Shown: piece by piece, positions 4,398 through 48,300 of the stretch | How the letters are laid out: the number at the start of each line of letters is the position of its first letter | Position numbering within the stretch: position 1 is the stretch's first letter | Virus record (IMG/VR): IMGVR_UViG_3300045988_066710 | DNA from: a virus | DNA: 64,000 bases | Strand: one strand, 5' to 3' | Position numbers and translations under genes: made by a program | Notes under the pieces: model-generated | Seen by the model: only the letters and a program-made list of their open reading frames with translations | What the model was told of the DNA's origin: nothing | The model's database searches: none

Positions 4398-4759
4398 ATA
4401 AAGTAAATGTCAAAGAGTCTCTTTTAGAGGTTGTTAATGGCAACAACTTAGAGATACTTAAAATAGATTTATGCAATGATGAAGAATCTTTTGCTAGGTC
4501 TTATAACAGAGAAAGAGACGAGTATTGTAAAACTTATACTACTCTAAAGGACTTAGATTTTGAGGTAGAATTTATCTTTATGTATGATGTAGTTCGTGGT
4601 ATGGTTTATTGTCAAGATAAAGATACTAAAGAACCAGTATGGATTGTATCTAGTGGTGATGAAGGAGGTTCTTGGTGGGAAGTCAATAGAGTTCCAGACT
4701 TTTATAAAAATCAATTTAAAAAGTTAGAGGATGATACAAAAGCAGACATGGAAGGATGA
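4394..4759 (+). CDS. hypothetical protein
   Basis: ATG ORF of 121 aa, coupled by an ATGA overlap to the upstream gene. Confidence 0.55.
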   Translation: MNKVNVKESLLEVVNGNNLEILKIDLCNDEESFARSYNRERDEYCKTYTTLKDLDFEVEFIFMYDVVRGMVYCQDKDTKEPVWIVSSGDEGGSWWEVNRVPDFYKNQFKKLEDDTKADMEG

Positions 4760-5078
4760 AATCAGAATTTTAATAACTGATGAAGAAAATCTCAGTTCGG
4801 TTCAAATATTTATTCCATTATATGTTAGTAATCTTTTCGGCAAAGCTGATGCTCTAATATATGCACTCTTTGTAGATAATAATCATAGAAGAAAGGGTGT
4901 CGCACAACACTTATTGCAACTAGCAGAACAACAAGCTAAGTTGAATGGAGTGAAGGTAATCGGATTAGAATTTGTTAAAGAAGAATCTGATGAATTTGTT
5001 CTAGATTGGTATCTCCGTAGTGGTTATAAACTATTTGATAAGAAAAGTAATTTATTAATTAAAAAGTTGGAGGATTGA
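4731..5078 (+). CDS. GNAT-family N-acetyltransferase-like protein
   Basis: VDNNHRRKGVAQHLLQLAEQQAKLNG matches GNAT motif A (R/Q-x-x-G-x-G/A followed by a helix), and a YLRSGYK-type C-terminal strand follows. The protein is short (115 aa), so it may be a minimal GNAT. Confidence 0.55.
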   Translation: MIQKQTWKDEIRILITDEENLSSVQIFIPLYVSNLFGKADALIYALFVDNNHRRKGVAQHLLQLAEQQAKLNGVKVIGLEFVKEESDEFVLDWYLRSGYKLFDKKSNLLIKKLED

Positions 5079-5080
5079 TT

Positions 5081-5455
5081 ATGGACAGAAATCAAGCTAA
5101 AGAATTTTATCCTATTCTGCAAGCATTTGCAGAAGGAAAGGCAATTGAATGTAGAACTAAACCAAGTGCATTAAGCAAAAGCTGGCAAGGTATGAATGAT
5201 TGGACGGAAATAAAAGAAATAGGGTACTGGGATAATATAGAATACCGAATTAAGCCAGAACCAAAGTACCGTCCATTTAAGGATGCAAAAGAGTGCTGGC
5301 AAGAAATGCAAAAGCATCAGCCATTTGGATGGGTGAAATATGCAGATAAATATATTTCTATATCAGCAATAGACTCAAACAATGATTATGAAATCGATTT
5401 TGATGATTATACTTTTGCTGATAGTACTCCATTTGGTGTGAAAATAGAGGAATAG
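5081..5455 (+). CDS. hypothetical protein, paralog A of a duplicated pair
   Basis: The track ORF starts at TTG 5075 and the first ATG is at 5081. It shares YRIKPEPKYRPFKDAKECWQEMQKHQPFGWVK and TPFGV with the product of 5690..6076. Confidence 0.6.
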   Translation: MDRNQAKEFYPILQAFAEGKAIECRTKPSALSKSWQGMNDWTEIKEIGYWDNIEYRIKPEPKYRPFKDAKECWQEMQKHQPFGWVKYADKYISISAIDSNNDYEIDFDDYTFADSTPFGVKIEE

Positions 5456-5479
5456 TTATGGAAATTAATGAAAAAATAA

Positions 5480-5659
5480 ATGAAAATTAAAAATAAAATG
5501 ATAAAATATCTTATTATTATATTAGGATTAGTAGGAGGTGTTCTTATTGCTTCTAGTATAATCCTATTTGCATTTAGATTAGATTCCTTGTTTGGTTTAT
5601 TTATAATAGGGGTATTTATTCTTTTAGCTGATTATATTATATTTGACATTATATCTTGA
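5480..5659 (+). CDS. small membrane protein (59 aa)
   Basis: Translated by hand: MKIKNKMIKYLIIILGLVGGVLIASSIILFAFRLDSLFGLFIIGVFILLADYIIFDIIS. It has two hydrophobic helices and lies between the two paralogs. Confidence 0.4.
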   Translation: MKIKNKMIKYLIIILGLVGGVLIASSIILFAFRLDSLFGLFIIGVFILLADYIIFDIIS

Positions 5660-5689
5660 AGAATCAAACTAATTTAAATAGAAAGTAAC

Positions 5690-6076
5690 ATGAATAAAGA
5701 TAAGGTAAAAAAGCTAGCTGAAATATTACAGGCTTATTTAGCTGGAAGAGAAATTGAATTTTATTCTTCTATCTTTAATGAATGGAAGCCTGCTTTTATA
5801 ACTGATATTAGTAGCTTGATAAAAAATATTGATAATTATAGAATTAAACCAGAAGTAAAGTATAGACCTTTTAAAAATTTAAAAGAATGTCTAGAAGAAA
5901 TGCAATGTCATATTCCTTATGGTTGGATAAAAACAAATAATAATGTTCATCGTTTAATAACCCTTTTAGATGAAGATAGAACACTAATAGGTCATCAAGA
6001 GACAAGTTGGACTTATGAAAAACTATTTGAGAGTTTTACCTTTATGGATGGTAAACCTTTTGGTGTAAGATATTAA
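5690..6076 (+). CDS. hypothetical protein, paralog B of a duplicated pair
   Basis: YRIKPEVKYRPFKNLKECLEEMQCHIPYGWIK and KPFGVRY align with the product of 5081..5455. Confidence 0.6.
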   Translation: MNKDKVKKLAEILQAYLAGREIEFYSSIFNEWKPAFITDISSLIKNIDNYRIKPEVKYRPFKNLKECLEEMQCHIPYGWIKTNNNVHRLITLLDEDRTLIGHQETSWTYEKLFESFTFMDGKPFGVRY

Positions 6077-6540
6077 CTTATTTAAATTAGAGTATATGGA
6101 ATATATTATAGTTCTTTTATGTATTTTTATAATTATATTAATGATTATTAATTTACCCTAAATTATATGGCAATAATAGCTAGTATATTTTGTTTTATTT
6201 ATATATGTATGATAATATATGTATTAAATGAAATATTTAAAATGAAATAGAAAATACTAATAATTATAACATAACAAATAAAGAAATTATTCGAGTAAAA
6301 ATTTTTGGTCTACTATTTTTGAATACTCGCTAATCACTAAAAATAGAGTAATAATAGTATTTTCTATAGTCCATAAATGCAAAAATTAGTAAGACTATAA
6401 ACTCTAATTTACGTGATTTTGAAACTAAGATTTTAAGAGAAAAAGCTAGTGAGTTCTTACTATTTCTTATTATTAAAGAAAAGTGACTTTTACATAACAG
6501 TTTTCAATAGTAAAACTGTTAATTTTAATATTTATAATAT

Positions 6541-6753
6541 ATGAAGAATAAGAAATTACATGACATTATGAAGCATAGTAATGATGTCACTAAAAAATTA
6601 GTAGAGGTTAATAACTTAGATAATCCTAAAGAGATTGCTAAAATTAATCAGATTACTGATTTATTTATATCAGTTAAAAATAATACAAAATTACTGCAAT
6701 TATTAGTAGTTGCAGTAGATATGGTAGTAGATTACATTAATAAAAATAAATAA
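6541..6753 (+). CDS. hypothetical small protein
   Basis: ATG ORF of 70 aa, the first gene after a roughly 460-nt region with no substantial ORF. Confidence 0.4.
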   Translation: MKNKKLHDIMKHSNDVTKKLVEVNNLDNPKEIAKINQITDLFISVKNNTKLLQLLVVAVDMVVDYINKNK

Positions 6754-6760
6754 GAAAACT

Positions 6761-7057
6761 ATGGAAATTAAAGCTAGTGTGAAGATTATTGAAGGAGGAT
6801 TTGAAGAATCAGTAAATTTCTCTGTTAAAGGTAATTTTAATATTAATTTTAAAATAACTCGTACTCCTGTAAGAGTAAGAGTGCTAAATATCTCTAATGA
6901 ATCATATGATTATATGACTTCCAAAGAGTGCCCTGAATGGAGTAAAAAGGCAGAATGGCTTTCTATGTCTAAAAAGAAGAGATTTGAATCTCATCTTAAT
7001 AGAATAGCACACGATTGCTTGGGAAAGGTTATGGATTATGAAGTTTTTAATGATTAA
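6761..7057 (+). CDS. hypothetical protein
   Basis: ATG ORF of 98 aa, followed by a strong intrinsic terminator. Confidence 0.5.
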   Translation: MEIKASVKIIEGGFEESVNFSVKGNFNINFKITRTPVRVRVLNISNESYDYMTSKECPEWSKKAEWLSMSKKKRFESHLNRIAHDCLGKVMDYEVFND

Positions 7058-14143: not shown

Positions 14144-15166
14144 ATGATTAGCAATGGATATACTTCAATAACTTTAAAAGATATATTAAACAAAGTAGAT
14201 GAGGGTCAAATACTTAATTTCTACTTTGGTATTACACAAGTTCCTTTTAGAATGAATAGCCCTTTAAGGAATGATTCTAAACCTTCATTTGGATTATATT
14301 CAAGTGATGGTATACATATACATTATAAAGACTTTGCAACAGGAGAACAAGGGTCTTTATTTGATTTACTTATGCAAATCTACAATATTAGTTTTATAGA
14401 ACTAGTAGATAAGATAAGTAAAGATATGAATATTAATACTAAGCAGATTAATATCTCTAAATCTCAAATTAAACATAACTCAGCTACAATAAGTAGTAGT
14501 CAAATCAGACTAGAGGTTAAAACTAGAGAATGGAGAAATTATGATGTTGAGTATTGGGAATCTTATGGATGTAATATAAATCTATTAAAGTATGTTGAAG
14601 TATATCCTATTAGTCATAAAATTATATATAAAGATAATAAAAGATATACCTTTGCTTGTGATAAACTAGCATATTGTTATATTGAAAGAAAAGAAGGGAA
14701 TATCACCAAGAAAATTTATCAACCCTATAATAAAAATGGTTACAAATGGACATCTTCCAATGACAAGAGTGTTATTGGTTTGTGGTCTAAAATTCCAGAG
14801 ACAGGAGATACATTGCTTATATGTTCATCATTGAAAGATAGTATCTGTCTATGGTCTAATGTTAATATACCCTGTATATATGTTCAATCAGAAAATACAG
14901 AGTTAAGTGATTCTGCAATTAATTGTTTACAAAAAAGATATAATCATATTTATATAGCATTTGATGGAGATTCAGCAGGTGAAATAGATGCCTATAATCT
15001 TAGATTAAAAACAGGTTTTGAGATAATTCATTGTCCTTTAATTGATAAGGCAAAAGATTATTCAGATATATATCATTATTTTGGTAAAAAAAGACTTATT
15101 GAAGAATTTAATAATGCTTTTAATAAGACTAAAGCACCAGATATGGATGATGATTTACCTTTTTGA
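14144..15166 (+). CDS. DnaG-like DNA primase (degenerate zinc-finger region plus Toprim)
   Basis: SPLRNDSKPSFGLYSSDG...YKDFATGEQGSLFDLL resembles the CHC2 zinc-finger region of DnaG with the cysteines lost. For the Toprim domain, I identified the DxD-type motif IAFDGDSAGE, preceded by LLICSSLKDSICLW; I did not identify the N-terminal Toprim acidic residue (normally a conserved Glu). Confidence 0.75.
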   Translation: MISNGYTSITLKDILNKVDEGQILNFYFGITQVPFRMNSPLRNDSKPSFGLYSSDGIHIHYKDFATGEQGSLFDLLMQIYNISFIELVDKISKDMNINTKQINISKSQIKHNSATISSSQIRLEVKTREWRNYDVEYWESYGCNINLLKYVEVYPISHKIIYKDNKRYTFACDKLAYCYIERKEGNITKKIYQPYNKNGYKWTSSNDKSVIGLWSKIPETGDTLLICSSLKDSICLWSNVNIPCIYVQSENTELSDSAINCLQKRYNHIYIAFDGDSAGEIDAYNLRLKTGFEIIHCPLIDKAKDYSDIYHYFGKKRLIEEFNNAFNKTKAPDMDDDLPF

Positions 15167-15212: not shown

Positions 15213-15926
15213 ATGGAAAAAAGAAAGATTACAGTGATTCCTACAAAGACTCACAAGACACAAGTTATTGAAAGTGCAGCAACAACATTGGCAGAACTCA
15301 AAGCAGACCTTACTAAGGCAGGTATTAATTATACTGATTGTACATTCTTTGAGGGTCTTACTAAGATTGAATTGAAGAATGATGCTGCTATTCTTCCACA
15401 TGATGTTCCTTATAAGGGAACTACTACTAATAACTTAGTATTTATGATTACTAATGCTTCAAAGAAGATTAGAAGTGGAGCAAAGCTTGATAGAAAGGCT
15501 ATCATTGAGGAGATTAAGAGTAAGAATCTTACAGAAGTAGTTAAGAAGACTTATGGTAAGAATTATACTAACTGTAAGACAGAAGATTTGCAGAAGATTC
15601 TTAACAAAGAAGCAGCTTCTACAACAGCAGATGCTTCAGCTCCTACAGCTAAAGCAGCTCCTGCAAAGAAGGAAGCTCCTAGTAAGCCTGTAATGAAGGC
15701 TGATGACCCTAGTAACTATGTTACTAAAGCAGAACTTAAGAAAGTTATTGAAAGTCTTTTGGAAGAAATGGAGAATGCAGGTATGGATTATTCTGATGAT
15801 ATTGATATTGATAATATTGCTATTATTGGTAATGTCACTTCAGATACTTCAAATGCTTCAAAGGAAGAGGAATCAGATTCTCCATATTCATCAAATGAAC
15901 TTGATGATATGTTTAAAGATATGTAA
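15213..15926 (+). CDS. hypothetical protein with possible N-terminal beta-grasp (Ubl-like) domain, HeH-like segment, Ala/Pro-rich linker and acidic tail
   Basis: The N-terminal roughly 88 aa (KITVIPTKTHKTQVIESAATTLAELKADLTKAGI...NLVFMITNASKKIRSG) has a strand-strand-helix-strand pattern and ends in R-S-G. The tail ...SNELDDMFKDM resembles the acidic/aromatic tails of replisome-interacting proteins. The fold is not verified. Confidence 0.6.
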   Translation: MEKRKITVIPTKTHKTQVIESAATTLAELKADLTKAGINYTDCTFFEGLTKIELKNDAAILPHDVPYKGTTTNNLVFMITNASKKIRSGAKLDRKAIIEEIKSKNLTEVVKKTYGKNYTNCKTEDLQKILNKEAASTTADASAPTAKAAPAKKEAPSKPVMKADDPSNYVTKAELKKVIESLLEEMENAGMDYSDDIDIDNIAIIGNVTSDTSNASKEEESDSPYSSNELDDMFKDM

Positions 15927-15943
15927 TTTATAAAAAATCTAAT

Positions 15944-15986
15944 AGGGAGTAAGTATAGTAATATATTTGCTCCCTTCTTTTTTATT
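15944..15986 (+). terminator. putative rho-independent terminator
   Basis: Stem AGGGAGTA (15944-15951) / TGCTCCCT (15968-15975) has one G-U pair and a 16-nt loop, followed by the T-rich tract TCTTTTTTATT. The long loop lowers confidence. Confidence 0.45.
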
Positions 15987-15990
15987 ACTT

Positions 15991-17106
15991 ATGGATATAA
16001 AAGAACAAATAAGAAATAAGTATTATACTCCTACAGAAGAAGCTCTTAAAGTATATGAAATATTTAAAAGTTTCTTTGGTGAAACTAAAGTAGACTTTCA
16101 AGTAGATAAAGATTTTAAAGATGCTGTAGAAACTTTAATAGCAGAAGATGAAAACTTGGAAGATACTTTAAACCTTCCTTTACTTCCATTATGTGAATTT
16201 TCATATATTATATTAGTTCATTTTCCAAATGTAACTATTACTAATGAAAAAGATAATAATGTAGATATTCATGATTTATATGTTAAAGTACCACTTGATT
16301 ATACAGGAAAACAAGCTAAAAGATTTGAAATGATTGTTACTACTTTCACTAAAGTTTTATATGAAAGTCATTATACACATTCCCATTTACCTTCAGGTTC
16401 TTTAAGTCATGGTAAAGCTTATTTTAATAGACCTTGTTTAGGAGAAGGTCCTATTGGAGACACTTGTAATATTCTTGGAGATGAAAATAATGAAAATATA
16501 TGGAAATTATTCTGTGTGGAATTAGCTAGATATGTTACAGTAGAATCTATAGCAGGAGTTCCTTATTACAGAATGGAAAATATTGGTAGAAATAATAGTA
16601 ATAAAGAAATAATTCTTTCAGATACTTGTTATACAGTCTCTTCAGAAATTTCATTTATTATAAAAGAAGCCATACGTAATCTTATAAATAGAAAAGTATT
16701 TACTTTTAAATATGTAAATAATACTTATAGCTTTGCTGCTAATGATGCTTCTTTAATTAGATTAATAAGCAATGAGTTTATAACAATTTATAATAAAAGA
16801 TTTAATAATAAAGAACTTTCTACAAATTTAAATGAATTAATAAGAGCTAAAATTCTTATAAAAGCAGTTTTTTATAAAGGATGTTTTACTGAAGAAGATA
16901 GTAATAGACACAGTTCTTGTAGTCCTAGTACTGATGTCTTATTTACATTTAAGAATATACCTGTTAAAATGAAGATTATAGATACTGATACTACTATTGA
17001 ACCTGTATATATTCTTAATGTAAAATATATTAATGTGGCAATACGAAATATATTAGAATTTATAAATTACAATTATGGACAAGAATATATTAAAGAAACA
17101 AGATAA
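15991..17106 (+). CDS. hypothetical protein, possible E2/UBC-like component
   Basis: The track ORF begins at TTG 15967 and the first ATG is at 15991 (MDIKEQ). A beta-rich stretch (YIILVHFPNVTITNEKDNNVDIHDLYVKVPL) is followed by HYTHSHLPSGSLSHGKAYFNRPCLGEGP, that is, a His followed by a Cys in a C-L-G context. It overlaps the JAB gene by 32 nt. The E2 assignment is an inference only. Confidence 0.55.
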   Translation: MDIKEQIRNKYYTPTEEALKVYEIFKSFFGETKVDFQVDKDFKDAVETLIAEDENLEDTLNLPLLPLCEFSYIILVHFPNVTITNEKDNNVDIHDLYVKVPLDYTGKQAKRFEMIVTTFTKVLYESHYTHSHLPSGSLSHGKAYFNRPCLGEGPIGDTCNILGDENNENIWKLFCVELARYVTVESIAGVPYYRMENIGRNNSNKEIILSDTCYTVSSEISFIIKEAIRNLINRKVFTFKYVNNTYSFAANDASLIRLISNEFITIYNKRFNNKELSTNLNELIRAKILIKAVFYKGCFTEEDSNRHSSCSPSTDVLFTFKNIPVKMKIIDTDTTIEPVYILNVKYINVAIRNILEFINYNYGQEYIKETR

Positions 17107-18211
17107 TACATATAAGTTAATTATTACTCCAGAACTAGAAGAAAAGATTAGATTCTTGTGTGCTAGATTTCCTAATAATGAATATAGTGGAGTATTATTC
17201 TATGATTATACTGGTAGATTTGAAGATAATTCTTTAGTATTAACTGCTAAAGATTTCTGTCTTATGGATTATGGTTCTGCTACTTATACTGAGTTTGATA
17301 AGAGTGCAGAAATCTGTAATTATATGATAGAACATGATTTATTAGAATGTCAGCAAGGTTTAATGCATTCACATGACCAGATGTCAACGTTTTTCAGTGG
17401 AACTGACCTTGGAACTCTTCAAGAAGAAGGTTCTGATATGAATAATTTCTTATCTTTAATTGTAAATAATGCTGGTCAATATACTGCGGCAATTACAAGA
17501 AAAGTTAAACATATTCCTCATGTAACAGAAGTACTTGAATATGAGTTCTTTGGTGAAGAAACTATTAATATAGGTAATGATGAATATGATGCTATAGAAT
17601 CTTATGAAATAGAATATTTCTTCTTGAATATTGAAAAGCCTACTGTAAATATTGGTTATACAGACCTATTTAATAGAATTGAAGAAATTAGTAAGGATAA
17701 GACTAAAATTACAAATATTAGTAGAGAACCTCGTGCTAATCTTATTGTTGACTCTACTTTAAAGGCAACACCTTTATATAAGGAAACAAATATACCTTTC
17801 TCTAAGGCTAATACTGCTGTTCAAGCAGGAGTAGATACAGATGAATCTATTGATTATAATAAGTATAAATTTAATGAAACAGACTTAAATAATATTGTTA
17901 AACAATTACTTATAGGTAGTCCTATATTTACTCCAAAAGACCTCAATGAATGGGTTCAAAAAATGCCTACAGTATTTTCTAAGAGATTTGGAGAAGGACA
18001 AAAAGGTTTAGCGAATTATAGAGCTTTTATTGGTTATTTTGTAGAATTTCTTGTAACAGAAGCCTTTGATGATAATTTAGCAGAAGAAGGTTATCTTGAA
18101 GATTCACAAATGGCTATATGTGCTTATGGTGTATTACAGAAATTACATACATTTAAAACTAATTCCTTTATTGAAGTTATAGAGGATGAAATAGAACGTT
18201 TTATTATTTAA
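17075..18211 (+). CDS. JAB/MPN (JAMM) metallopeptidase-domain protein with a roughly 230-aa C-terminal extension
   Basis: Upstream Glu in NNEYSGVLFY (E-x-x-G) and an exact JAMM signature HSHDQMSTFFSGTD (H-x-H-x7-S-x2-D). Confidence 0.8.
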   Translation: MDKNILKKQDNTYKLIITPELEEKIRFLCARFPNNEYSGVLFYDYTGRFEDNSLVLTAKDFCLMDYGSATYTEFDKSAEICNYMIEHDLLECQQGLMHSHDQMSTFFSGTDLGTLQEEGSDMNNFLSLIVNNAGQYTAAITRKVKHIPHVTEVLEYEFFGEETINIGNDEYDAIESYEIEYFFLNIEKPTVNIGYTDLFNRIEEISKDKTKITNISREPRANLIVDSTLKATPLYKETNIPFSKANTAVQAGVDTDESIDYNKYKFNETDLNNIVKQLLIGSPIFTPKDLNEWVQKMPTVFSKRFGEGQKGLANYRAFIGYFVEFLVTEAFDDNLAEEGYLEDSQMAICAYGVLQKLHTFKTNSFIEVIEDEIERFII

Positions 18212-18215
18212 AATT

Positions 18216-19166
18216 ATGAATGAAGAATCAACTATAACTCCACCTTTGGAGGTTAATATGGAACAAATAGTAAATACTACAGCTAATGTTCCAGAAGTTG
18301 CTATTGCTCCTTTAGAGATAACAGAAAGAGAAACAACATCAATATTAGAACCTGAAGAAGTAGTAGAAGAAGAATCAGAATCTATATTATCAGAAGAAGA
18401 TGAAGCTTTTTTGAATGAAGTTATTGAAAACCAACATCAGGAAATTCCTCTTATAAGTGAAGATTATCATGATGAAACTGCTAGATTTTCAGGAGCAGAA
18501 TGGTTTAATAAAATTAAAGAGAAAATTATTATTGTAGGAGGTGCAGGAGGTATTTCTTCAAATGCTATATTTCAATTAGCTAGAATACACCCTAAGAGTA
18601 TTTATATCTTTGATAATGATAAAGTTGAGGAAGTTAATCTTGCTGGACAAATGTTTGGTATCAAGGATATAGATAAATATAAAGTGGATGCCATAGCAGA
18701 AACTGTTAACCATTATAGTAAATATACTGATGTGTTTGCTATGCGAGAATTATATACTAGTAATAGTTTTACTTCTGATATTATGATTTGTGGCTTTGAT
18801 AATATGGAAGCTAGAAAGGTATTCTTTAATAACTGGAAAAAACATGTAGAATTGCAGAAAGATAAATCTAAATGTCTATATATTGATGCCCGATTGTCAT
18901 TTGATACTTTACAAATACTCACTATTGTAGGTACAGATACATATAATCAGGATAGATATGAAAAAGAATTCTTATTTTCTGATGAAGAAGCAGATGAAAC
19001 TGTATGTAGTTTAAAACAAACTACTTTTATGGCATGCATGATAGCTTCTTTTATTGTAAATAATGTAGTTAATTTCTGTGCTAATGAAATTGTTCCTATG
19101 ATAAAGCAATTACCTTTCTTTATAGAATATGATTGTAATATGATGTACTTAAAAGAAGAAGATTAA
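18216..19166 (+). CDS. ThiF/MoeB/E1-like adenylyltransferase with acidic N-terminal extension
   Basis: IIIVGGAGGISSNAIFQLARI...IYIFDNDKVEEVNLAGQMF matches the E1/ThiF Rossmann signature (GxGxxG...D.D.Ve.sNL.RQ). The N-terminal roughly 90 aa are Glu-rich. Confidence 0.75.
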   Translation: MNEESTITPPLEVNMEQIVNTTANVPEVAIAPLEITERETTSILEPEEVVEEESESILSEEDEAFLNEVIENQHQEIPLISEDYHDETARFSGAEWFNKIKEKIIIVGGAGGISSNAIFQLARIHPKSIYIFDNDKVEEVNLAGQMFGIKDIDKYKVDAIAETVNHYSKYTDVFAMRELYTSNSFTSDIMICGFDNMEARKVFFNNWKKHVELQKDKSKCLYIDARLSFDTLQILTIVGTDTYNQDRYEKEFLFSDEEADETVCSLKQTTFMACMIASFIVNNVVNFCANEIVPMIKQLPFFIEYDCNMMYLKEED

Positions 19167-19834
19167 TGATAAGTGAAAATATTAAAAATAATATAAATAG
19201 CTTTCTTGGTGTTACGTCAGCCTCTCTCTGTTCAACAGGTATACCTTTATTAGGAACAGAGAATAATCAATTCTCTCTATATATGACAAATCATATATTT
19301 AATGGTAAGATTACAGAGATTCCTATTTATAATTCTTTATCTTCGAGAGGAATAATTCCACTATTTACTTTTTCTTCTACTAGTATAAATGAAAGAAAAA
19401 CTTTTGGTCCTCTCTTAAAAGAGTTAAGTTTTACTAGAGGAGCAGGAGCATTAAATAGAGTTAGAGATAAAGATGGTAATCTTTATTATGGAATGAGAGG
19501 TTTAATACTTAATAGTAATTTAGAGCCATTAGTATTATGTACTATTAGACCTCCTAGAACATCATCAGCTACCACAGAACTTATACTTAGAGTAAGTCCT
19601 AAAGTTTTTAATAGTGATAATGTTGTATGTAAAGGTATTCAAAAGTATCTTATTGAATATTGTAGTACTGTCTCTAGATATTTTTCTATAGTAAGTGGTT
19701 TTACTACTATGACAGTTATCATTAACAATGATATTGATAAGTTTATAAGACATGCCAAGGCTCCTACCAATATTAATGTTAATGAGGAAATACAACAGCT
19801 TCTTGTAGATAATATAGATAAATTATGTCTTTAG
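19166..19834 (+). CDS. hypothetical protein, coupled to the E1-like gene
   Basis: ATG ORF of 222 aa. Its start overlaps the E1-like stop by 1 nt (TAATG) and its 3' end overlaps the UDG start. Confidence 0.55.
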   Translation: MISENIKNNINSFLGVTSASLCSTGIPLLGTENNQFSLYMTNHIFNGKITEIPIYNSLSSRGIIPLFTFSSTSINERKTFGPLLKELSFTRGAGALNRVRDKDGNLYYGMRGLILNSNLEPLVLCTIRPPRTSSATTELILRVSPKVFNSDNVVCKGIQKYLIEYCSTVSRYFSIVSGFTTMTVIINNDIDKFIRHAKAPTNINVNEEIQQLLVDNIDKLCL

Positions 19835-20430
19835 AGGAATATTTTGGAGATTGGTTAAAAGTAATAGATAAGAAAGTATTATATGAGACAATTAATACAC
19901 TTAATTCTAGCAATACTGTTAATTTGTGTCCTAATTATAATGACATCTTTAATTGCTTTAAAGCTTGTAAATTATCTAAATTAAAGGTAGTTATATTAGG
20001 TTTAAGTCCTTATCCACAATTAGGTAAGGCTACTGGAATTGCTTTTGGTAACAATATAAAAACACTTGATAAAGATCTATCACCATCCTTACAAGTTATA
20101 AAAGAATCAGTTATCAATTATGAAATTCCACAAAATAGTAGTATCTTTGACCCCAGTTTTGAAGATTGGGAGAAGCAAGGAGTATTAATGTTGAATTGTG
20201 CATTGACATGTAAAGCAGGTCTCCCTAGTTCTCATTTAGGACTATGGAGACCTTTTATATCTAAACTAATATATAATATGTCTAGATATATGACTGCTTG
20301 TGTATATGTATTATTTGGTGAAGAAGCTAAAACTTTTGAACCTTATATCTCTCAATATAATTATGTAATTAAAGAAAAACATCCTTCATATTATGCTAGG
20401 AATCATAAGAAACTTAGATATAATTTGTAG
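19825..20430 (+). CDS. ung: uracil-DNA glycosylase (family 1-like)
   Basis: VILGLSPYPQLGKATGIAFG compares with the canonical VILGQDPYHgpgQAhGLaFS. GVLMLNCALT compares with GVLLLNtvLT. KHPSYYA compares with HPSPLS. Confidence 0.75.
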   Translation: MSLEEYFGDWLKVIDKKVLYETINTLNSSNTVNLCPNYNDIFNCFKACKLSKLKVVILGLSPYPQLGKATGIAFGNNIKTLDKDLSPSLQVIKESVINYEIPQNSSIFDPSFEDWEKQGVLMLNCALTCKAGLPSSHLGLWRPFISKLIYNMSRYMTACVYVLFGEEAKTFEPYISQYNYVIKEKHPSYYARNHKKLRYNL

Positions 20431-41420: not shown

Positions 41421-44400
41421 ATGAGTAAATGTACATTTATACCAACAAATAAAGAGGGGAATATCCCCTCTTTATTTACACAATTAAAAAGTTATTTTGG
41501 AAATACTAAACAAGCATTATATTACTGGCAGAGAGTTAAATCTCCAGAGTTTAGTAAAACATTTCCAAATGTTAGATATGATAATGAAGGTAATCCATTA
41601 ATGGAAGACCTAATGTATAAAGTTGGCTTGGATGGTCTTAAAGATGAGCTTAGCCAGCTAAAAAATTTGAATCAGCATAATAGTCCTGTAGCTAGAAATT
41701 ATACTAATGTAATGAATCTAGAGGAACAAGCTGTGTCATTTAATAGAAATAGTCCTTATAGAAGTAAGTTCTTTGCAACAGTAACTAATGTAGAGGATAA
41801 AGTAAAGTTATCTATAAGACCTATAAGAGAAAATAAAGAAGATATAACTCATAAGATTGAATTCAATAGTAAGTTAAATAGGAGATTAGAAGGACTATTA
41901 TCTGACTGGGGTATAGGAGTCGGTGCATTAAGTGAACTTGAAGAAAAACAAGGAATTAATGGTATAACAGATTTTGATTGTGCAATAACTACTGCTAATG
42001 GTTTAAAAACTTTAATTAGAGTAGCTAAAGGTCAAAGAGGTCAAGATGTATTACCAGAAGAGTTTGCACACTTTGCAATAGAAGCAGTAGACACTCCATT
42101 AAAAGCTAGAATGACTAATGTACTTAGTGATGAGAATATACTTGAGAGAATCTTTGGTGATACATATCAAGATTATATGAATAAGTACAATAATAATCTT
42201 GACTTAATGGCTGTAGAAGCATTAGGTAAGATTATGGCTGATGTACTTAATGATAAGGAAGTATTTAATCCTAATAAAAGATTATTTGATAGGTATCTTA
42301 ATCAAGTAAAAGATAAATTCAAAGATAAGAATACTGATGATATTGATAAAATAATTAATGAAGTTAAAGTTCAAGTATATGATTTAGCTAATGATATAGT
42401 AAATAACAGATATACTATGAATATTAGTACTAAAGAACATAATACTAAGTTATATAATCTTACAAGTAATGTTAATAAATCAGCTAAAATACTTGAAAAA
42501 ATTCTTGAACAAGAGCTAAAGAGATTGAAAGTATATGGTGATAAGAAAGATTTTGGTGCTGCTCAGCAAGTATTTATAAATAAATTACAAGCAGATTTAC
42601 AGAATCATCAAGAGATACAAGGTATTCTTGAATATATGGATAATAGTCTTAGTGTTCTTGGTAATCTTGAAAAGAGAATGGCTAAAATTGGTAGTGGTGA
42701 ATTATCAAAAGAAGAAGAATTTAAAGCTCTTAGAAATGTAAGAAACTATCTTAATTCATATGGTGTCATTATGAATGACATTAGAAAACAGATGAATGAA
42801 GCTTCTAGAGAAGGAGATGATAGCATTAAAGAAAATATTAAGGATATTCTTAATCAGAATGATATTATAATAAAGGACTTATCATCAGATTTCTATGAGA
42901 TAGCTAAAGATAAGTTTACTGAATTTATAAGACCATTTGTTGGTGACGGTTTAGCTATAACTATTGGTAGAGATAGATATAAGAAAACTTATACAGCAGA
43001 AGAATTAGTAACTTCTATGGATAGAGATATTACCTTAGCTGATAGATGGTTAGATTCAATGGCAGATTCTTCTGACCCTATGTTACAGATTTATGACCAA
43101 GTTGTAAAGAAACAAAAAGGGGAAGCTAGACTTGATACTATTGAAATGGCTAAAGAAATTCAAGCTAAAGTCAAAGAACTTGAAGATAGAGGAGTAACTG
43201 ATACTTCCTTTATGTATGAAAGAGATGAAAATGGTAATCTTACAGGTTATTTTGTACAAAAGATTTGGTGGAGTAAATATAAGAATGCTAAGAATACATT
43301 CTTTAAAAAGTTAAAAGAGAAATATGGAGATAATCCTGAAGGCTTTGAAAAGATTGCAAGAGATAATGAAATCAATGAATGGTATAAGGAAAATACCTAT
43401 AAAGATAAATTTGGTAATAGAAGACCTCTTATAGAAAAGTATGCTAATCCTGCTTGGAATAAACTTACAGAAGCACAGAAAGAATATCATAGTTATATGA
43501 TGGAATTAAAGTCTAAACTTGATGGTGTATTACCTAATTCTTCTAGTGTATCTGTAGGTAAAGCTCCCCAGATAAGAAGAGATTTCTTACAGAGATTTAC
43601 TGGTTCTTCATTATCTAGTCAAGGTAAATACTTCTGGGAGAATATGAAAGATTCTCTTGTAAGAAGAGAAGATGATGTTGAGTATCTTGATAAATCTGTA
43701 GTAATGGATTTTGAAGGTAATCAGGTAATGATGTTACCAGTATATTATACTAAGGATTTGCAGGATATGAATGACTTATCTCTTGATACTACATCATCTA
43801 TGATAGCTTATATGGCTATGGTAAATGACTTTAATAGAATGAATGAAGTTATTGATACTCTTGAAGTAGGAAGACTTGTATTAGCAGAAAGAAGAGTTAA
43901 TCAGACAGAAGGTAATAAGACTAAGACTGAACATTTTAATGTATTAGGAAGACAGATACATAATGTACTTACTAAGAAAGGAGATTCTACATACTTTATA
44001 CAGAAATTAAATACATTTATGGAAATGCAAGTCTATGGTATTACTCATAAAGATGAAGGTTCTTTAGGTAAAGTAGATGTAGCTAAAGGTGCAGATTTCT
44101 TGAATAGAATGACATCATTAGGTACTACAGCTTTAAGTGTTCTTACTGGTACTGCTAACTTATTACAGAACTTAACTATTGATAGAATTGAAGCTACTAG
44201 TGGTAAATTCTTTAATCATTCAGAGTTAACTAAAGCAGAAGCTATATATGCTAAGGAATTACCTGCATTCTTAGGAGAATTTGGTAATAGAATAAAGACT
44301 AATAAACTAGCTTTATTCAGTGAATTATTTAATGTTCCTCAGAATTATAAGTCAAGTGTAAGAGATGTACAATGGAATAGAAAGACTTGGGCTTCAAGAT

Positions 44401-45356
44401 TATTTAATAGTAATGCTCTTTGGTTTACTACCAGTGCAGGAGACCATTTTGTACAACATAGAGCTGCTATTGCTTTAGCATTAAGATATAAATTAAAGGA
44501 TAAAAATGGTAATTCTATTGATTTATGGGATGCTTTAGAAGTAGTTCCTATTAATAAAGATAAACCTAAATTAGGTGCTAAGTTACAGATAAAACCAGGT
44601 ATTACCAAGATGGATGGTAGTGCTTTTACTAGAGCCGATATTATTAAATTCAGTAATCAAAATAGAGCAGTTCAGAATATGAATTATGGTATCTACAATG
44701 ATGAAGATAAAAATGCTTTACAACAAAGAGCAGCAGGAAGACTTATAATGTTCTATAGAAACTGGATGAGACCTTTATATCTTAATAGATTTGGTAGAGG
44801 TAAATATAATTATGATTTACAGGACTATACTGAAGGTTATTATATGACTATGGGTAGATTTATATATCAATCTATGAAAGACCTTAAACAATCAGAGTTT
44901 GATATTATCAGGCAATGGAAACATTTATCTGATATTGAAAAGGGTAATATAAAGAAAGGTCTTACTGAATTAGGTTTCTATTGGTCATTATATGCTATTA
45001 TTGCTGCATTAGGTGTAGCAGGAGGCGATGATGGTAAACATAAACCTTGGTTTGCAAGAATGTCAAGTTATGCTTTACTTAGATTAAGAACTGATATGGG
45101 AGTATTATTACCTAGTCCTTCAATGATTGATGAGGGATTGAAGTTCTTTAAATCTCCATTTGCATCAATATCTTATATAACTAAATTAAGAAAGATATTA
45201 AATTTAGTTGACCCATCTGTATATACAACTACTGTTAATAGTGGTATATATAAAGGATATACAGAAGCAGAAAAGATTGGTTTAGATTTATTACCATTCA
45301 GAAAACAGATTGTTAATTCATTAAATCCAGATGAACCAGCAAGATATTATAAATAA
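41421..45356 (+). CDS. large (1,311 aa) protein of the RNAP/virion-cargo block, function unknown
   Basis: Its ATG lies 1 nt after the RNAP stop. It is long and helical-looking, with one hydrophobic segment near the C-terminus (GFYWSLYAIIAALGVAGG). Confidence 0.7.
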   Translation: MSKCTFIPTNKEGNIPSLFTQLKSYFGNTKQALYYWQRVKSPEFSKTFPNVRYDNEGNPLMEDLMYKVGLDGLKDELSQLKNLNQHNSPVARNYTNVMNLEEQAVSFNRNSPYRSKFFATVTNVEDKVKLSIRPIRENKEDITHKIEFNSKLNRRLEGLLSDWGIGVGALSELEEKQGINGITDFDCAITTANGLKTLIRVAKGQRGQDVLPEEFAHFAIEAVDTPLKARMTNVLSDENILERIFGDTYQDYMNKYNNNLDLMAVEALGKIMADVLNDKEVFNPNKRLFDRYLNQVKDKFKDKNTDDIDKIINEVKVQVYDLANDIVNNRYTMNISTKEHNTKLYNLTSNVNKSAKILEKILEQELKRLKVYGDKKDFGAAQQVFINKLQADLQNHQEIQGILEYMDNSLSVLGNLEKRMAKIGSGELSKEEEFKALRNVRNYLNSYGVIMNDIRKQMNEASREGDDSIKENIKDILNQNDIIIKDLSSDFYEIAKDKFTEFIRPFVGDGLAITIGRDRYKKTYTAEELVTSMDRDITLADRWLDSMADSSDPMLQIYDQVVKKQKGEARLDTIEMAKEIQAKVKELEDRGVTDTSFMYERDENGNLTGYFVQKIWWSKYKNAKNTFFKKLKEKYGDNPEGFEKIARDNEINEWYKENTYKDKFGNRRPLIEKYANPAWNKLTEAQKEYHSYMMELKSKLDGVLPNSSSVSVGKAPQIRRDFLQRFTGSSLSSQGKYFWENMKDSLVRREDDVEYLDKSVVMDFEGNQVMMLPVYYTKDLQDMNDLSLDTTSSMIAYMAMVNDFNRMNEVIDTLEVGRLVLAERRVNQTEGNKTKTEHFNVLGRQIHNVLTKKGDSTYFIQKLNTFMEMQVYGITHKDEGSLGKVDVAKGADFLNRMTSLGTTALSVLTGTANLLQNLTIDRIEATSGKFFNHSELTKAEAIYAKELPAFLGEFGNRIKTNKLALFSELFNVPQNYKSSVRDVQWNRKTWASRLFNSNALWFTTSAGDHFVQHRAAIALALRYKLKDKNGNSIDLWDALEVVPINKDKPKLGAKLQIKPGITKMDGSAFTRADIIKFSNQNRAVQNMNYGIYNDEDKNALQQRAAGRLIMFYRNWMRPLYLNRFGRGKYNYDLQDYTEGYYMTMGRFIYQSMKDLKQSEFDIIRQWKHLSDIEKGNIKKGLTELGFYWSLYAIIAALGVAGGDDGKHKPWFARMSSYALLRLRTDMGVLLPSPSMIDEGLKFFKSPFASISYITKLRKILNLVDPSVYTTTVNSGIYKGYTEAEKIGLDLLPFRKQIVNSLNPDEPARYYK

Positions 45357-45361
45357 AAAAT

Positions 45362-45398
45362 AAGGGAGGAGGTTTACACCTTCTCCCTTTTTTATTTT
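45362..45398. terminator. bidirectional rho-independent terminator at the convergence point
   Basis: 12-bp stem AAGGGAGGAGGT (45362-45373) / ACCTTCTCCCTT (45378-45389) with one G-U pair and loop TTAC. A-rich sequence lies 5' of it and the T-rich sequence TTTTTTATTTT lies 3'. It sits exactly between the + strand stop (45356) and the - strand stop (45397). Confidence 0.8.
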
Positions 45399-48300
45399 AG
45401 CTTAAACAATTAAGTTCTGATTCTCTTTGCTTTGGTAACATATTGTTCCAATCTGTTTCATTCATATTCATAAGTTTAAGTAAGTCTCTAGTATCATTAC
45501 TTAATTCATTCCACTTCTTTAATGCTTCAGGATTATCTACTACAATATTACCATCTACATTTCTACCAGTTTGTTCTTCTACATCTGTTCTAGGCTTTAT
45601 TTCTTCTTTACCCAATGTACCATCAGGAGCTTCCTTATTATAAGTATTGAGTAAACTCATTGCTTTTAATAAATCTTCCTCAGCACTCTGTGGTCCTGTA
45701 GGAGTAGCATTAGACTTAGTATTATCTACAACATTAATAGGAGTAGCTGAAATTACAGTTTTAGTATTAGAATTATTTAATATATCTAATACTTGTTTAG
45801 TTACTTCTTCTTTACTATTACTAAAATCAGTATTAATTAAAGTATTCTTTATATATTCTTTATTTGAATCTGTAAGAGTACCTTTTACATTAATAATAAT
45901 ACCATTAGTACCTCTATTATTACCAAACTTCTCTGCATTTCTATAAGATATAATAGTTACTACACTACCATCTTTCATCTTAACTTCACTAAATACAGGA
46001 ACTGTTTTATCTTTACTCCAAACTCTAGGGTCTTCACTAACACCTCTCCAACCATCAGTAATATTAATAGTGCCAGTACCAAATTCACCACCTATAAATA
46101 CATTATTAGTATCATAATTAATTTTAACTTCTGGTTTAATTTCTGGTTTAATTTCTTCTTGAGGTTTAGCATTAACTATACCTGCTTGAATAAATGCAGC
46201 TTTATTAGCCTGTATAGTACTAGCCCAAGTACTTTTACTTTCTTCTAATTGTTTATCAGTAAGTAATTCTCTTCTACCATTCATATAAGTAACTTCACCA
46301 TTAGGAAATACCATATAAGGGGAATAGAAAGTAGTAATTTTCTTGGTAGAATTATTAGTAGATTTAACTTCTTCTATATAAGCTTTAATTTCACTACCAT
46401 TAATAGTAGTTACTACAGGTAAAGTACTTATATCTACTTTAACTTTCTTAGTAGGACTTAATTCTAATGTTTTAACATTACTTACAGGAATAGTATTGTT
46501 ATCTACTTTAGGAGTACTTACAGTAGTACCTTGCATAAATTCACTAGGTTGATAGGTAATATTGACTGTTGGTTCTGCATTAAATGCAGTAATACCTTTA
46601 TCATTATAATTGATAATTAAAGGTATTAAAGCCATATCAACTATAGGTGTACCATATCTACTAGTAAATAAGTCATTATAAGCACTTAATTGTCTAGTAT
46701 ATTGCTCTTGAGTACTTCTTATTTGTCTATTATGCCATACAGTAGTATAATGAGTATCAAGCTTACCTTCATCAGTATAGAATCTATACTTAGATGTCTT
46801 GAAATCATAGAATCTAAATTCTCCTGTATATTTATTATAAGTCAACAAGTCTAACTCTCCAGCAATTCTCTTATCACCAATCTTATTAAATACAACTATA
46901 CCATTAGCAATAGGAATTTCACCATTATTATCAAAGTATTCCTTCAATGATTTAGCTCTTGATTTAAATCTTTCAAATACTTCATTAGACATATTATCTG
47001 GCTTCTGTATAGCATCAATTTCTCCTTCAAAAGATTGTCTCATTAAATCATCAAATTCCTGACCATATTGTAAAGCTAAAGTATTAGGAGTTTGATTCTC
47101 ATCTCTCTTCCAAGATTCACCTATTACATTATGTACACCTTCATACTCATGATATTGACCATCATCTTCAAGTATTTGATATATATGTCCTTCTCTACCT
47201 TCAATAGTATTATCAGGTCTTCCATTATCTAATCTCTTAACTTTAGCTTGGTCTTCCTTTAATCTATTTAAAGTATAATTCATTTTATCTATAACAGTAG
47301 GTCTATTATTCATATTATCCTCATACATCTGCTTCTGCTTTTCAGTAGCATAAGATTTATGAGTTACATCCATATAATGACCATTAACTTTAGTAATACC
47401 ATTATAGATATAAGGACCATTTACTGCATTACCATTAAGCTCATAAGCAGCAGCTAAATCAAATATTAAATTAGTTCTTTTAGGTACTACAACACTTTCA
47501 CTACTGTCATAGATTTTACCATCTCTTACAAAGTAAGTATTCTTACCTAATGTTACTTTAGTACCTTCCTTATTTCCTGTAGGAGAGAATGTACCTTTAG
47601 GATTAATAGCATCTTTCTGATTACCTTCTTCATCATAATAATTGGTAGTAAACCAACTATTAGTCATTTGAGTATCTACTAAGTGAGTATAAAGTATATC
47701 ATCATTAACTAATTTTTCATTGTAATCTCCCTTATTAATCTCATTCTTATCAATATTAAAAGGAGTATTTAATGAATATAAATATTTAAGTATTTCATTA
47801 TAAACATGAGTAGGGTCTGTCTGAGTAGCAGCACTACCTCCAATAGAACCATCTACATTTAATGTAAAACTACCAGTGTTATTTTCTAAGTTAATATTCT
47901 TTGTACCTTGAGGACCACCTTTAAGAGATAGGAATATAGTACCTTTATAGCTGAATATATTCATATGAAAGCTATTAGGTAAATATAATTGCTGACATAA
48001 ATCTATGAATAATTCAGTACACTTATCAGGATTAGTAGTTTTACTTAATTCATCAATAATTCTATGTATTTCTCTTGCTCTAGAATTATTAGTATCCTTT
48101 AATTTATTTAAATCAAATTCTTCTTCATTGAAATGTTTTACTCTAATAGGTTTAGGAGAATAAGTACTTCTACTATTCTTTAATAATAAATATACCTTAC
48201 CATCAGCTTGACTTCTATTATAAGGTTTCTCAGTAGTCAAATCCTTATTGGTTATTAACTCTCTGTTACTAACTATACCTAACTGTATAGGAGTACCATT

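Follow-up and report, generated by a model that had tools for sequence, protein, structure and literature searches.

The window, that is, the whole stretch of DNA analysed here (64,000 nt; IMG/VR record IMGVR_UViG_3300045988_066710), belongs to a crAss-like phage with a GC content of ~28%. Protein identity is 41-55% to the phages crAss001, DAC15 and cr85_1, and 94-100% to several IMG/VR contigs. Five coupled genes on the + strand (15213-19834), here called A to E, lie between genes for a DnaG primase and a uracil-DNA glycosylase (UDG). An initial annotation, made from the sequence alone, had described them as a JAB and E1-like cassette with possible E2-like and ubiquitin-like (Ubl) partners, inside the replication module. 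Its open reading frame (ORF) coordinates and overlaps were all correct, and the five ORFs are on the + strand: B and C overlap by 32 nt, D and E by 1 nt, and E and the UDG gene by 10 nt. The features of the cassette are as follows.

15213-15926, + strand: gene A, ORF of 237 amino acids (aa), orthologue of crAss001 Gp79, candidate Ubl precursor.
15213-15479, + strand: N-domain of A (residues 1-89), putative beta-grasp (Ubl-like) domain, terminating in KKIRSG.
15474-15479, + strand: codons of A Ser88-Gly89, domain junction; proposed site of JAB cleavage and E1 activation.
15991 (ATG)-17106, + strand: gene B, ORF of 371 aa from the ATG, orthologue of crAss001 Gp78, in the 'E2 position'.
16378-16437, + strand: codons H130 to C149 of B (HSHLPSGSLSHGKAYFNRPC), candidate active or metal site; invariant columns.
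17075-18211, + strand: gene C, ORF of 378 aa, crAss001 Gp77 'metalloprotease'; JAMM/MPN+.
17180-17407, + strand: JAMM residues of C, namely E36 (17180-17182), H98 and H100 (17366-17374), S108 (17396-17398) and D111 (17405-17407).
18216-19166, + strand: gene D, ORF of 316 aa, crAss001 Gp76 'ThiF'; E1-like adenylation domain.
18483-19007, + strand: E1-site residues of D, namely R90, G109xG111G112, D133, N141, G144, K156, D195, R200 and C264 (19005-19007).
19166-19834, + strand: gene E, ORF of 222 aa, orthologue of crAss001 Gp75.

Judged by profile matches and conserved residues, D is a ThiF/E1-family enzyme whose domain is intact. An acidic and variable N-terminal extension (residues 1-85) is followed by an E1-like adenylation domain, which matches Pfam ThiF (PF00899) over residues 92-307 (57.6 bits against a cut-off of 28.1; E 1.3e-15) and carries the motif VGGAGGISSN...FDNDKVEEVNLAGQ. 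A profile built from 16 diverse orthologues matched UBA5, MccB, PaaA, TcdA, UBA3, UBA6, ThiF and Cap2 in the PDB. The invariant columns of the orthologue alignment comprise R90 (the Arg finger), G109xG111G112 (the G-loop), D133 (the ribose Asp), K156, D195 (the Mg Asp) and R200. When D was aligned to Escherichia coli ThiF and MoeB, using reference sequences entered by hand, its adenylation residues lined up with their counterparts. Among distinct orthologues, the G-loop, N..GQ and C[ST].KQT motifs were each kept in 79/79 and FDN...R in 78/79. C264 is also invariant (79/79) and, in the comparison with the same typed references, aligns to ThiF C184 and MoeB C187. Cys184 of ThiF is the acyl-disulfide cysteine, and its position is the one at which canonical E1s insert the catalytic-Cys domain. 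These matches and conserved residues bear out the E1 call of the initial annotation, and they place D apart from the non-E1 Rossmann families that lack the adenylation residues. The N-terminal extension (window 18216-18470) is acidic and of low complexity (…EPEEVVEEESESILSEEDE…), and varies from 0 to ~170 residues among orthologues.

More specific models gave D scores below their cut-offs. The best NCBIfam match was a ThiF model (62.5 bits against 159; 4e-17), followed by a second (51.9 against 152), and PRTRC_ThiF scored 37.6 bits against 144.75 (1.5e-9). The PADLOC E1-E2 (Cap2) models matched at 7e-10 over the E1 core only (query 98-213 on profile 334-446). Pfam and NCBIfam scans found no rhodanese domain in D, and the Pfam scan detected no MccB-type peptide clamp or RiPP recognition element (RRE) domain. 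We rejected an identity as the ThiF of thiamine biosynthesis, since the scores are far under the equivalog cut-offs and no thiamine genes lie near the cassette. The cassette proteins are labelled 'thiamine biosynthesis protein' or 'E1 enzyme family protein', 'metalloprotease domain' and 'hypothetical' in GenBank; 'thiamine biosynthesis protein' and 'metalloprotease' are misleading, the ThiF label being a family name and not a supported function.

C is, by the same kind of comparison, a JAMM/MPN+ peptidase with an intact catalytic domain. This domain is N-terminal (~1-190) and is followed by a variable linker and a conserved helical C-terminal domain. It contains the NEYSG and HSHDQMSTFFSGTD motifs, and E36, H98-x-H100, S108 and D111 are all invariant in the orthologue alignment, so that the complete JAMM signature noted initially at 17075-18211 is upheld; the motifs are kept in 71-72 of the 74 distinct orthologues. 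The Pfam Prok-JAB score (PF14464) is below the gathering score (16.5 bits against 25; E 0.008), and the PADLOC JAB (CBASS-type) model matched at 3e-5. In the PDB, the sole relevant matches of the C family profile were the Pyrococcus furiosus deSAMPylase JAMM1 (1.2e-4) and CSN5, with no match to RadC. A RadC-like JAB was excluded on these grounds, the nearest solved relatives being the JAMM1 deSAMPylase and CSN5.

A 98% identical relative (locus L006) carries a group I intron (Rfam Intron_gpI, 68.7 bits) within the codons of the JAB HSH motif. The JAB gene there spans 4694-6996 and the intron 4978-5197, exon 1 ending ...ATG CAT T and exon 2 beginning CA CAT GAC...; the same interruption contains an antisense LAGLIDADG ORF of 296 aa (5155-6045). 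An intron at this point is typical of an indispensable active site that cannot drift. In another relative (L014), the JAB ORF lies at coordinates displaced as in L006 (6166-6996).

In phages the two enzymes co-occur strictly. Searches of 50,697 phage records by tblastn, with D and with the JAB domain of C, each matched 74 records with an identical organism breakdown (29 Bacteroides crAss-like phages, 29 Flavobacterium Fipvunavirus, 12 uncultured 'cr' phages and a few others). Across the 80 IMG/VR loci the genes stand in the order primase-A-B-C-D-E-UDG, except in loci cut at a contig end and two without a hit to E; crAss001 (Gp79-Gp75) and bajarodcaudo virus share this order, and A-B-C-D order extends to DAC15 and to the distant Flavobacterium phage FpV4. 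Across the C and D alignments the catalytic residues are invariant although overall identity is 25-50%. Every motif quoted in the initial annotation was found, and their conservation across orthologues indicates that they do not arise by chance. The co-occurrence that it had asked to be surveyed is thus real: C and D occur strictly together, in fixed order with A and B. The cassette was seen only in the 74 phage genomes and in phage-like contigs, and is therefore not a host-encoded antiphage system.

The conserved N-domain of A is followed by an HeH-like helical segment, then by a variable linker and, at the C-terminus, by an acidic tail (SPYSSNELDDMF). Residues 1-89 of orthologues are on average 62% identical to the window protein, against 27% for the remainder. 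The N-domain ends in KKIRSG (residues 84-89), and the junction K.[IV].SG is kept in 72/72 orthologues; Gly89 is invariant, Ser88 near-invariant and the next residue small and hydrophobic, with NG at the junction in one distant cluster. The residues before the Gly are basic and hydrophobic (KKI[KR]SG; compare LRLRGG), and the tail of the FpV4 orthologue, ...GDFTVFMRPKQVKSGG, resembles the C-termini of MoaD and ThiS. In a phmmer search of 1.84 billion representatives, 730 clusters (at 50% identity) carried the A domain; it was N-terminal in the best 150 of the 730 matches, in proteins of 146-261 aa. After the junction, the helix pair is HeH/SAP-like in pattern only, with no Pfam match, and the acidic tail (SPYSDDEIDDMF) resembles both the ...DDDLPF end of the neighbouring primase and the tails of single-stranded DNA-binding proteins (SSB).

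Natural splits of gene A show that the domain ends at SG. In two relatives (L035 and L060) a gene for an HNH homing endonuclease lies directly after the SG codons, splitting gene A, and in a third (L071) the endonuclease gene has decayed and the split remains (L035, 3186-4487; L060, 3216-4429; L071, 3503-4432). The 5' ORF is then 91 aa long, ending two residues beyond SG (...KKIRSGIC* or ...KKIKSGKF* in L035 and L060), and the 3' part restarts at its own ATG. Rfam found no group I intron at the split in any of the three loci, so an intron was rejected and the splits were treated as those of free-standing homing endonucleases. The splits after SG indicate that residues 1-89 can function as a polypeptide on their own, comparable to a Ubl that carries a short pro-peptide. 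From these sequence features, it is plausible that the N-domain is Ubl-like.

Two further observations concern the A family. A close homologue (P0044) carries the precomputed Pfam accession PF27945.1, which is absent among the local Pfam hits of A; a Pfam entry, probably for a domain of unknown function, may recently have been created for this family. In a database protein of 164 aa (P0452), the N-domain and helix of A are fused to a C-terminus that resembles a primase and ends ...YDDDLPF; this protein is probably a chimera of assembly or gene calling.

B contains the motif HSHLPSGSLSHGKAYFNRPCLG. Y128, H130-S131-H132, C149-x-G151 and G153-P154 are invariant, W171, C175 and E177 are conserved, and the HSH...C.G pattern is present in 75/75 orthologues. 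Translation from an upstream TTG (15967) is less likely than from the ATG at 15991, according to the orthologue alignment. The AlphaFold model is confident (pLDDT 84.7, pTM 0.71) and runs from a helix through a three-strand meander (72-120) and the His...Cys loop to helices at 154-181, an order congruent with that of UBC proteins as a pattern only. A Foldseek search of BFVD returned only uncharacterised phage proteins, 3/5 of them named crAss-like or cr128_1, and in bacterial data B homologues were limited to five contigs from metagenome-assembled genomes (two of them, of 94 and 111 kb, as large as crAss-like genomes); B is thus found only in phage-like contigs. A HUH Rep nuclease, as the Y-x-H-S-H motif might suggest, was rejected: the motif lies in a loop and not in a strand, and there was no Rep fold among the Foldseek matches listed.

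Less can be said of E. It has no invariant Cys or His in the orthologue alignment, no match in Pfam, NCBIfam, PHROG, PADLOC or the PDB, and no BLAST orthologue in FpV4 or in two of the IMG/VR loci (L066 and L081). Its overlaps of 1 nt with D and 10 nt with UDG make translational coupling to both probable.

The genes on either side of the cassette are those that the initial annotation had named. The upstream flank is a DnaG-type primase (PHROG DNA primase, 1e-46) and the downstream flank a family-1 UDG at 19825-20430 (NCBIfam, 1.5e-32); nearby are an AAA_24 gene and, both downstream, genes for a PD-(D/E)XK exonuclease and the anaerobic ribonucleotide reductase NrdD. With these genes flanking or adjoining it, the cassette sits inside a module for replication and nucleotide metabolism. 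In crAss001, the middle genes, which are largely for replication, recombination and nucleotide metabolism, are on from 10-30 min post infection (PMC8375218; gp75-79 are not mentioned there).

Starting from the intact E1 and JAMM domains, the strict co-occurrence in fixed order and the boundary in A at SG, we infer that the cassette encodes a phage-borne, Bil-like pathway of Ubl activation and conjugation with a novel protein in the E2 slot, and give this a probability of roughly 0.45. A would be made as a precursor, as a middle gene product alongside the replication proteins. C would cut after Gly89 (KKIRSG|A), giving an 89-residue Ubl-like domain and a C-terminal module; the HeH-like helix pair and SSB-like acidic tail suggest that the latter, once released, may bind DNA or the replisome. 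D would adenylate the Gly89 carboxylate using ATP and then, probably, transfer it onto Cys264. The Ubl would be handed to a second protein, most likely to Cys149 of B, which would occupy the E2 slot with a different fold, and from there to lysines of phage or host targets. C might also reverse the modification, and E might be an accessory protein or a substrate. We are considerably more confident of a narrower claim, which we regard as likely: the A N-domain works together with C and D as a triad of Ubl, peptidase and E1 of some kind.

A bolder form of the proposal is that crAss001-type and FpV4-type phages run a complete Ubl conjugation pathway of their own during genome replication, in which the modifier is cut from a replisome-associated fusion, B conjugates it by means of a fold not seen before and the tags go onto replisome or host proteins. 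This is possible but, on balance, doubtful. Eukaryotic ubiquitin is likewise released from ribosomal-protein fusions. The characterised bacterial systems that combine E1, E2, JAB and Ubl (CBASS Cap2/Cap3, Bil and Bub) are, to our knowledge, all host defences against phages. If the proposal were true, bacterial viruses too, and not their hosts alone, would use Ubl conjugation offensively or for regulation; a version carried by a phage and expressed with its replication genes would reverse the defence picture and make Ubl tagging a prokaryotic viral strategy. The crAss-like phages concerned are among the most abundant human gut viruses, and the cultured pairs crAss001/Bacteroides intestinalis and DAC15/Bacteroides thetaiotaomicron make the hypothesis directly testable.

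Several results weigh against a Bil-like pathway, and they bear on A, B and D. In A, the AlphaFold model of the N-domain has elements in the order expected of a beta-grasp, b(4-9) b(17-21) a(26-35) ... b(76-79), but its pLDDT is only 29-45 (<50) at residues 46-92. At least nine of the top 50 PDB hits of a Foldseek search with this low-confidence model have a ubiquitin fold (UFM1, ISG15 and FERM F1 lobes), all of them with E > 1. Comparison by hhalign with Ub, NEDD8, SUMO, ISG15, FAT10, ThiS, MoaD, UFM1 and URM1 gave <1% probability, with 47 and then with 191 sequences; no Pfam Ubl family matched A, and its profile matched nothing among PDB sequences. A beta-grasp fold is thus weakly supported by the model, and of the Ubl idea put forward initially for A, what has gained ground is the invariant Gly and the boundary marked by the gene splits. 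The tail is SG and not GG. A further 148 residues, themselves conserved, follow the Gly, and A could therefore be an uncleaved two-domain protein. In D, the near-universal Arg of the E1 NLxRQ motif is replaced by Gly144 (N-[LM]-[AS]-G-Q) in 79/79 orthologues, and CxxC zinc motifs are absent, as seen in the orthologue alignment and in the comparison with ThiF and MoeB. Overall, no cassette protein passes the cut-offs set specifically for the Bil, Cap2/Cap3 and PRTRC families.

B is a further difficulty. Pfam Prok-E2 and Metal_CEHH families were absent from B and 15 orthologues at E up to 1, a search of the PDB with the B profile returned nothing up to E 10, there was no E2 match in PADLOC, and hhalign gave 0.1% against eukaryotic E2s (sequences entered by hand) and 0.25% against a Prok-E2_D protein, with plasmid relatives also negative. 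In a Foldseek search of the PDB with the confident model, the lowest E was 0.67, and the 50 best matches listed included no E2. The suggestion that B is an E2/UBC protein is therefore not supported, and of the idea that the Cys of RPCLG is a UBC-like active site there survives an invariant His...Cys pair, with no UBC match. What speaks for an E2 role is gene position, the order of secondary structure and this His...Cys pair. As a confidently predicted structure without a known relative, B could represent a new class of Ubl-transfer enzyme.

BilABCD is reportedly a bacterial ISG15-like antiphage ubiquitination system (Hor et al. 2024). Bil/6C operons have the order Ubl-E2-DUB-E1, where DUB is the deubiquitinase, and in their Ubl a single conserved Gly precedes as many as nine additional residues (PMC10557695, Chambers et al.). 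The phage A-B-C-D order matches that of BilABCD/CEHH-6C by position for the Ubl candidate, the JAB and the E1; there is likewise a single conserved Gly with extra residues that would have to be removed, and the E1 and JAB are separate proteins. Unlike Bil, the cassette is phage-encoded and lies in a replication module rather than in a host defence island. PADLOC gave no significant hit to BilA, BilB or BilC, and to BilD an E of 0.0038 only. D is a short, single-domain E1 without the inactive adenylation domain (IAD), the CYS domain or the zinc site of Bil; B is long (371-450 aa), and no UBC fold could be detected in it; the candidate Ubl precursor has a conserved extension of ~150 aa; and there is a fifth gene, E.

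The relatedness of D to ThiF allows a different chemistry, in which the A N-domain would be a sulfur carrier like ThiS, MoaD or TtuB, the JAB would unmask it, D would adenylate it, and the thiocarboxylate would donate sulfur to a nucleotide, tRNA base or cofactor, with B as the sulfur-using enzyme. JAB proteins unmask sulfur carriers in the pairs CysO-Mec+ and QbsE-QbsD. As in ThiS-ThiF, D has an E1-like fold and a Cys (Cys264) at the position of the acyl-disulfide Cys184, and its best NCBIfam hits are the ThiF models; the FpV4 tail is similar to those of MoaD and ThiS, and the cassette sits among nucleotide-metabolism genes. Operons with JAB, ThiS/MoaD and E1 for sulfur have been described (Iyer et al. 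2006). Unlike in ThiS-ThiF, however, D is below every ThiF equivalog cut-off (62.5 against 159 bits for the best) and lacks the zinc motifs, and there is no ThiG/H/S/E near the cassette. A rhodanese domain is missing from D. A scan of the ORFs around the cassette turned up no partner of the cysteine desulfurase, PP-loop or ThiG/MoaE-like kind, B has no match among sulfurtransferase families, and the putative Ubl is fused to a conserved, replisome-like module. We regard a sulfur pathway as improbable.

Of similar improbability is that the JAB-E1 pair alone performs Ubl chemistry on the host, either stripping CBASS Cap2 or Bil conjugates as a counter-defence or hijacking a host Ubl, and that A, B and E are unrelated replication accessories. 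The likeness to type II CBASS Cap2/Cap3, in which an E1-like adenylation domain and a JAMM isopeptidase likewise lie side by side, speaks for it: the PADLOC E1-E2 and JAB models are the best hits of the cassette in that defence library (7e-10 over the E1 part of Cap2 for D; 3e-5 for C), and the folds of A and B are unproven. The phage cassette differs from CBASS in that it has no E1-E2 fusion, the hits being on the E1 core only, and is phage-encoded; no CD-NTase was found among the cassette or the neighbouring genes scanned. Against an isolated pair stand the co-occurrence of A and B with C and D in fixed order in two distant lineages (crAss-like and FpV4) and the 32-nt overlap of B and C. The invariant Gly of A at its domain boundary has no obvious need in an unrelated replication protein, and a deconjugating counter-defence needs no E1.

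The closest non-phage relatives of C and D that we found bear on the same question. They lie on Bacillaceae megaplasmids (hhalign 85-89% for C and 94-98% for D): Sporosarcina pSP10-266k (L089), a Lysinibacillus plasmid (L090), Bacillus cereus pPER272 (L091) and a Cytobacillus plasmid (L092). All four carry Prok-E2_D and ThiF among genes for Rad52, DnaN, DnaX and a 5'-3' exonuclease; a JAB was detected in L089 and L090 and weakly in L092, and none in L091. The Prok-E2_D family matched 154 plasmid records, 113 of them from Bacillus. The Bacillaceae JAB motif (HSHN.M..FFS.TD) is like that of phage C, and the Sporosarcina ThiF resembles phage D in lacking the Arg of NLxRQ (NLSNQ). Unlike the phage cassette, these have a recognisable Prok-E2_D, to which phage B shows no match (0.25%), and a C-terminal rather than N-terminal JAB domain. 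A and E have no counterparts there. That A, B and E have no detectable homologues in these cassettes is in favour of a pair acting alone; all three are confined to the phage lineage. That these relatives of the pair occur beside a genuine Prok-E2_D, in replication modules, speaks on the other hand for the Bil-like pathway. Taken with the phages, they suggest that cassettes of E1, E2 and JAB genes within replication modules are a wider and as yet uncharacterised theme among mobile elements.

Adenylation of something other than a Ubl is less probable again. D would then act like MccB, PaaA or TcdA on a peptide C-terminus or a nucleic-acid-linked carboxylate, giving a modified peptide, nucleotide or base, with the JAB-fold protein as a processing hydrolase. 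These three enzymes are among the best PDB matches of D (8e-10 to 1e-6), and the missing Arg and absent zinc motifs make D atypical. Their matches, however, span only the shared Rossmann core (query 90-185), neither the MccB-type clamp nor an RRE domain was detected in D, the JAB groups with Ubl isopeptidases, and outside phages the closest relatives of the pair have an E2-family protein beside them. That there is no functional cassette at all, the genes being adjacent by descent only and the A and B motifs reflecting ordinary structural conservation, is very improbable: the evidence is all comparative, and we found no discussion of this crAss cassette in the literature searched, none of which addresses these genes. 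Against this, the searches with C and with D recover the same 74 phage records, as judged by their count and organism breakdown; the start and stop codons of the genes overlap; the catalytic residues stay invariant where overall identity is 25-50%; and JAB-E1 adjacency recurs independently in megaplasmids.

Two other known arrangements can be set beside the proposed Bil-like pathway. The Iyer-Burroughs-Aravind type 6d/PRTRC systems, carried on mobile elements, also have a stand-alone E1 and a JAB, together with an E2-like protein and a small Ubl that ends in Gly. Unlike in PRTRC, no ParB is present and the phage JAB lacks the JAB-N domain described for type 6d; no NCBIfam model for PRTRC A, B, C, D, E, F or ParB hit any cassette protein. 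PRTRC membership was rejected, there being only the sub-threshold ThiF hit, and a tblastn search of 72,556 plasmids with D gave no PRTRC ThiF. In phages Lambda and T1, TAPI has a Ubl-like domain ending in Gly and a fused downstream domain, with predicted release by the adjacent JAB, TAPK (Iyer 2006). This is a precedent for a cleaved, phage-encoded Ubl-like fusion next to a JAB, although TAPI/TAPK have no E1, lie in the tail module and have the JAB fused to NlpC/P60. A Ubl cassette that a virus encodes in its replication module, and in which a structurally novel protein takes the E2 position, is probably new.

Some minor features of the surrounding region may be added. The C-terminus of the window primase (15137-15166) is ...DMDDDLPF, an SSB-like acidic tail; that of A (15885-15926) is ...SNELDDMFKDM, and that of FpV4 gp49 is ...EDLPF. 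Several proteins of the module may dock on one replisome hub through such acidic tails. The UDG gene, uninterrupted in the window (19825-20430), is broken at about residues 59-62 by an insert of 0.5-1.1 kb in five relatives: L035 (9691-9934), where a group I intron (84.8 bits) was detected, L018, L022, L063 and L080. Three more (L033, L081 and L082) have the same displaced UDG ORF of 152-164 aa. Finally, GC skew and AT skew flip sign at ~44000-46000 of the window, which suggests that a block of rightward replication or middle genes there gives way to genes transcribed leftward.

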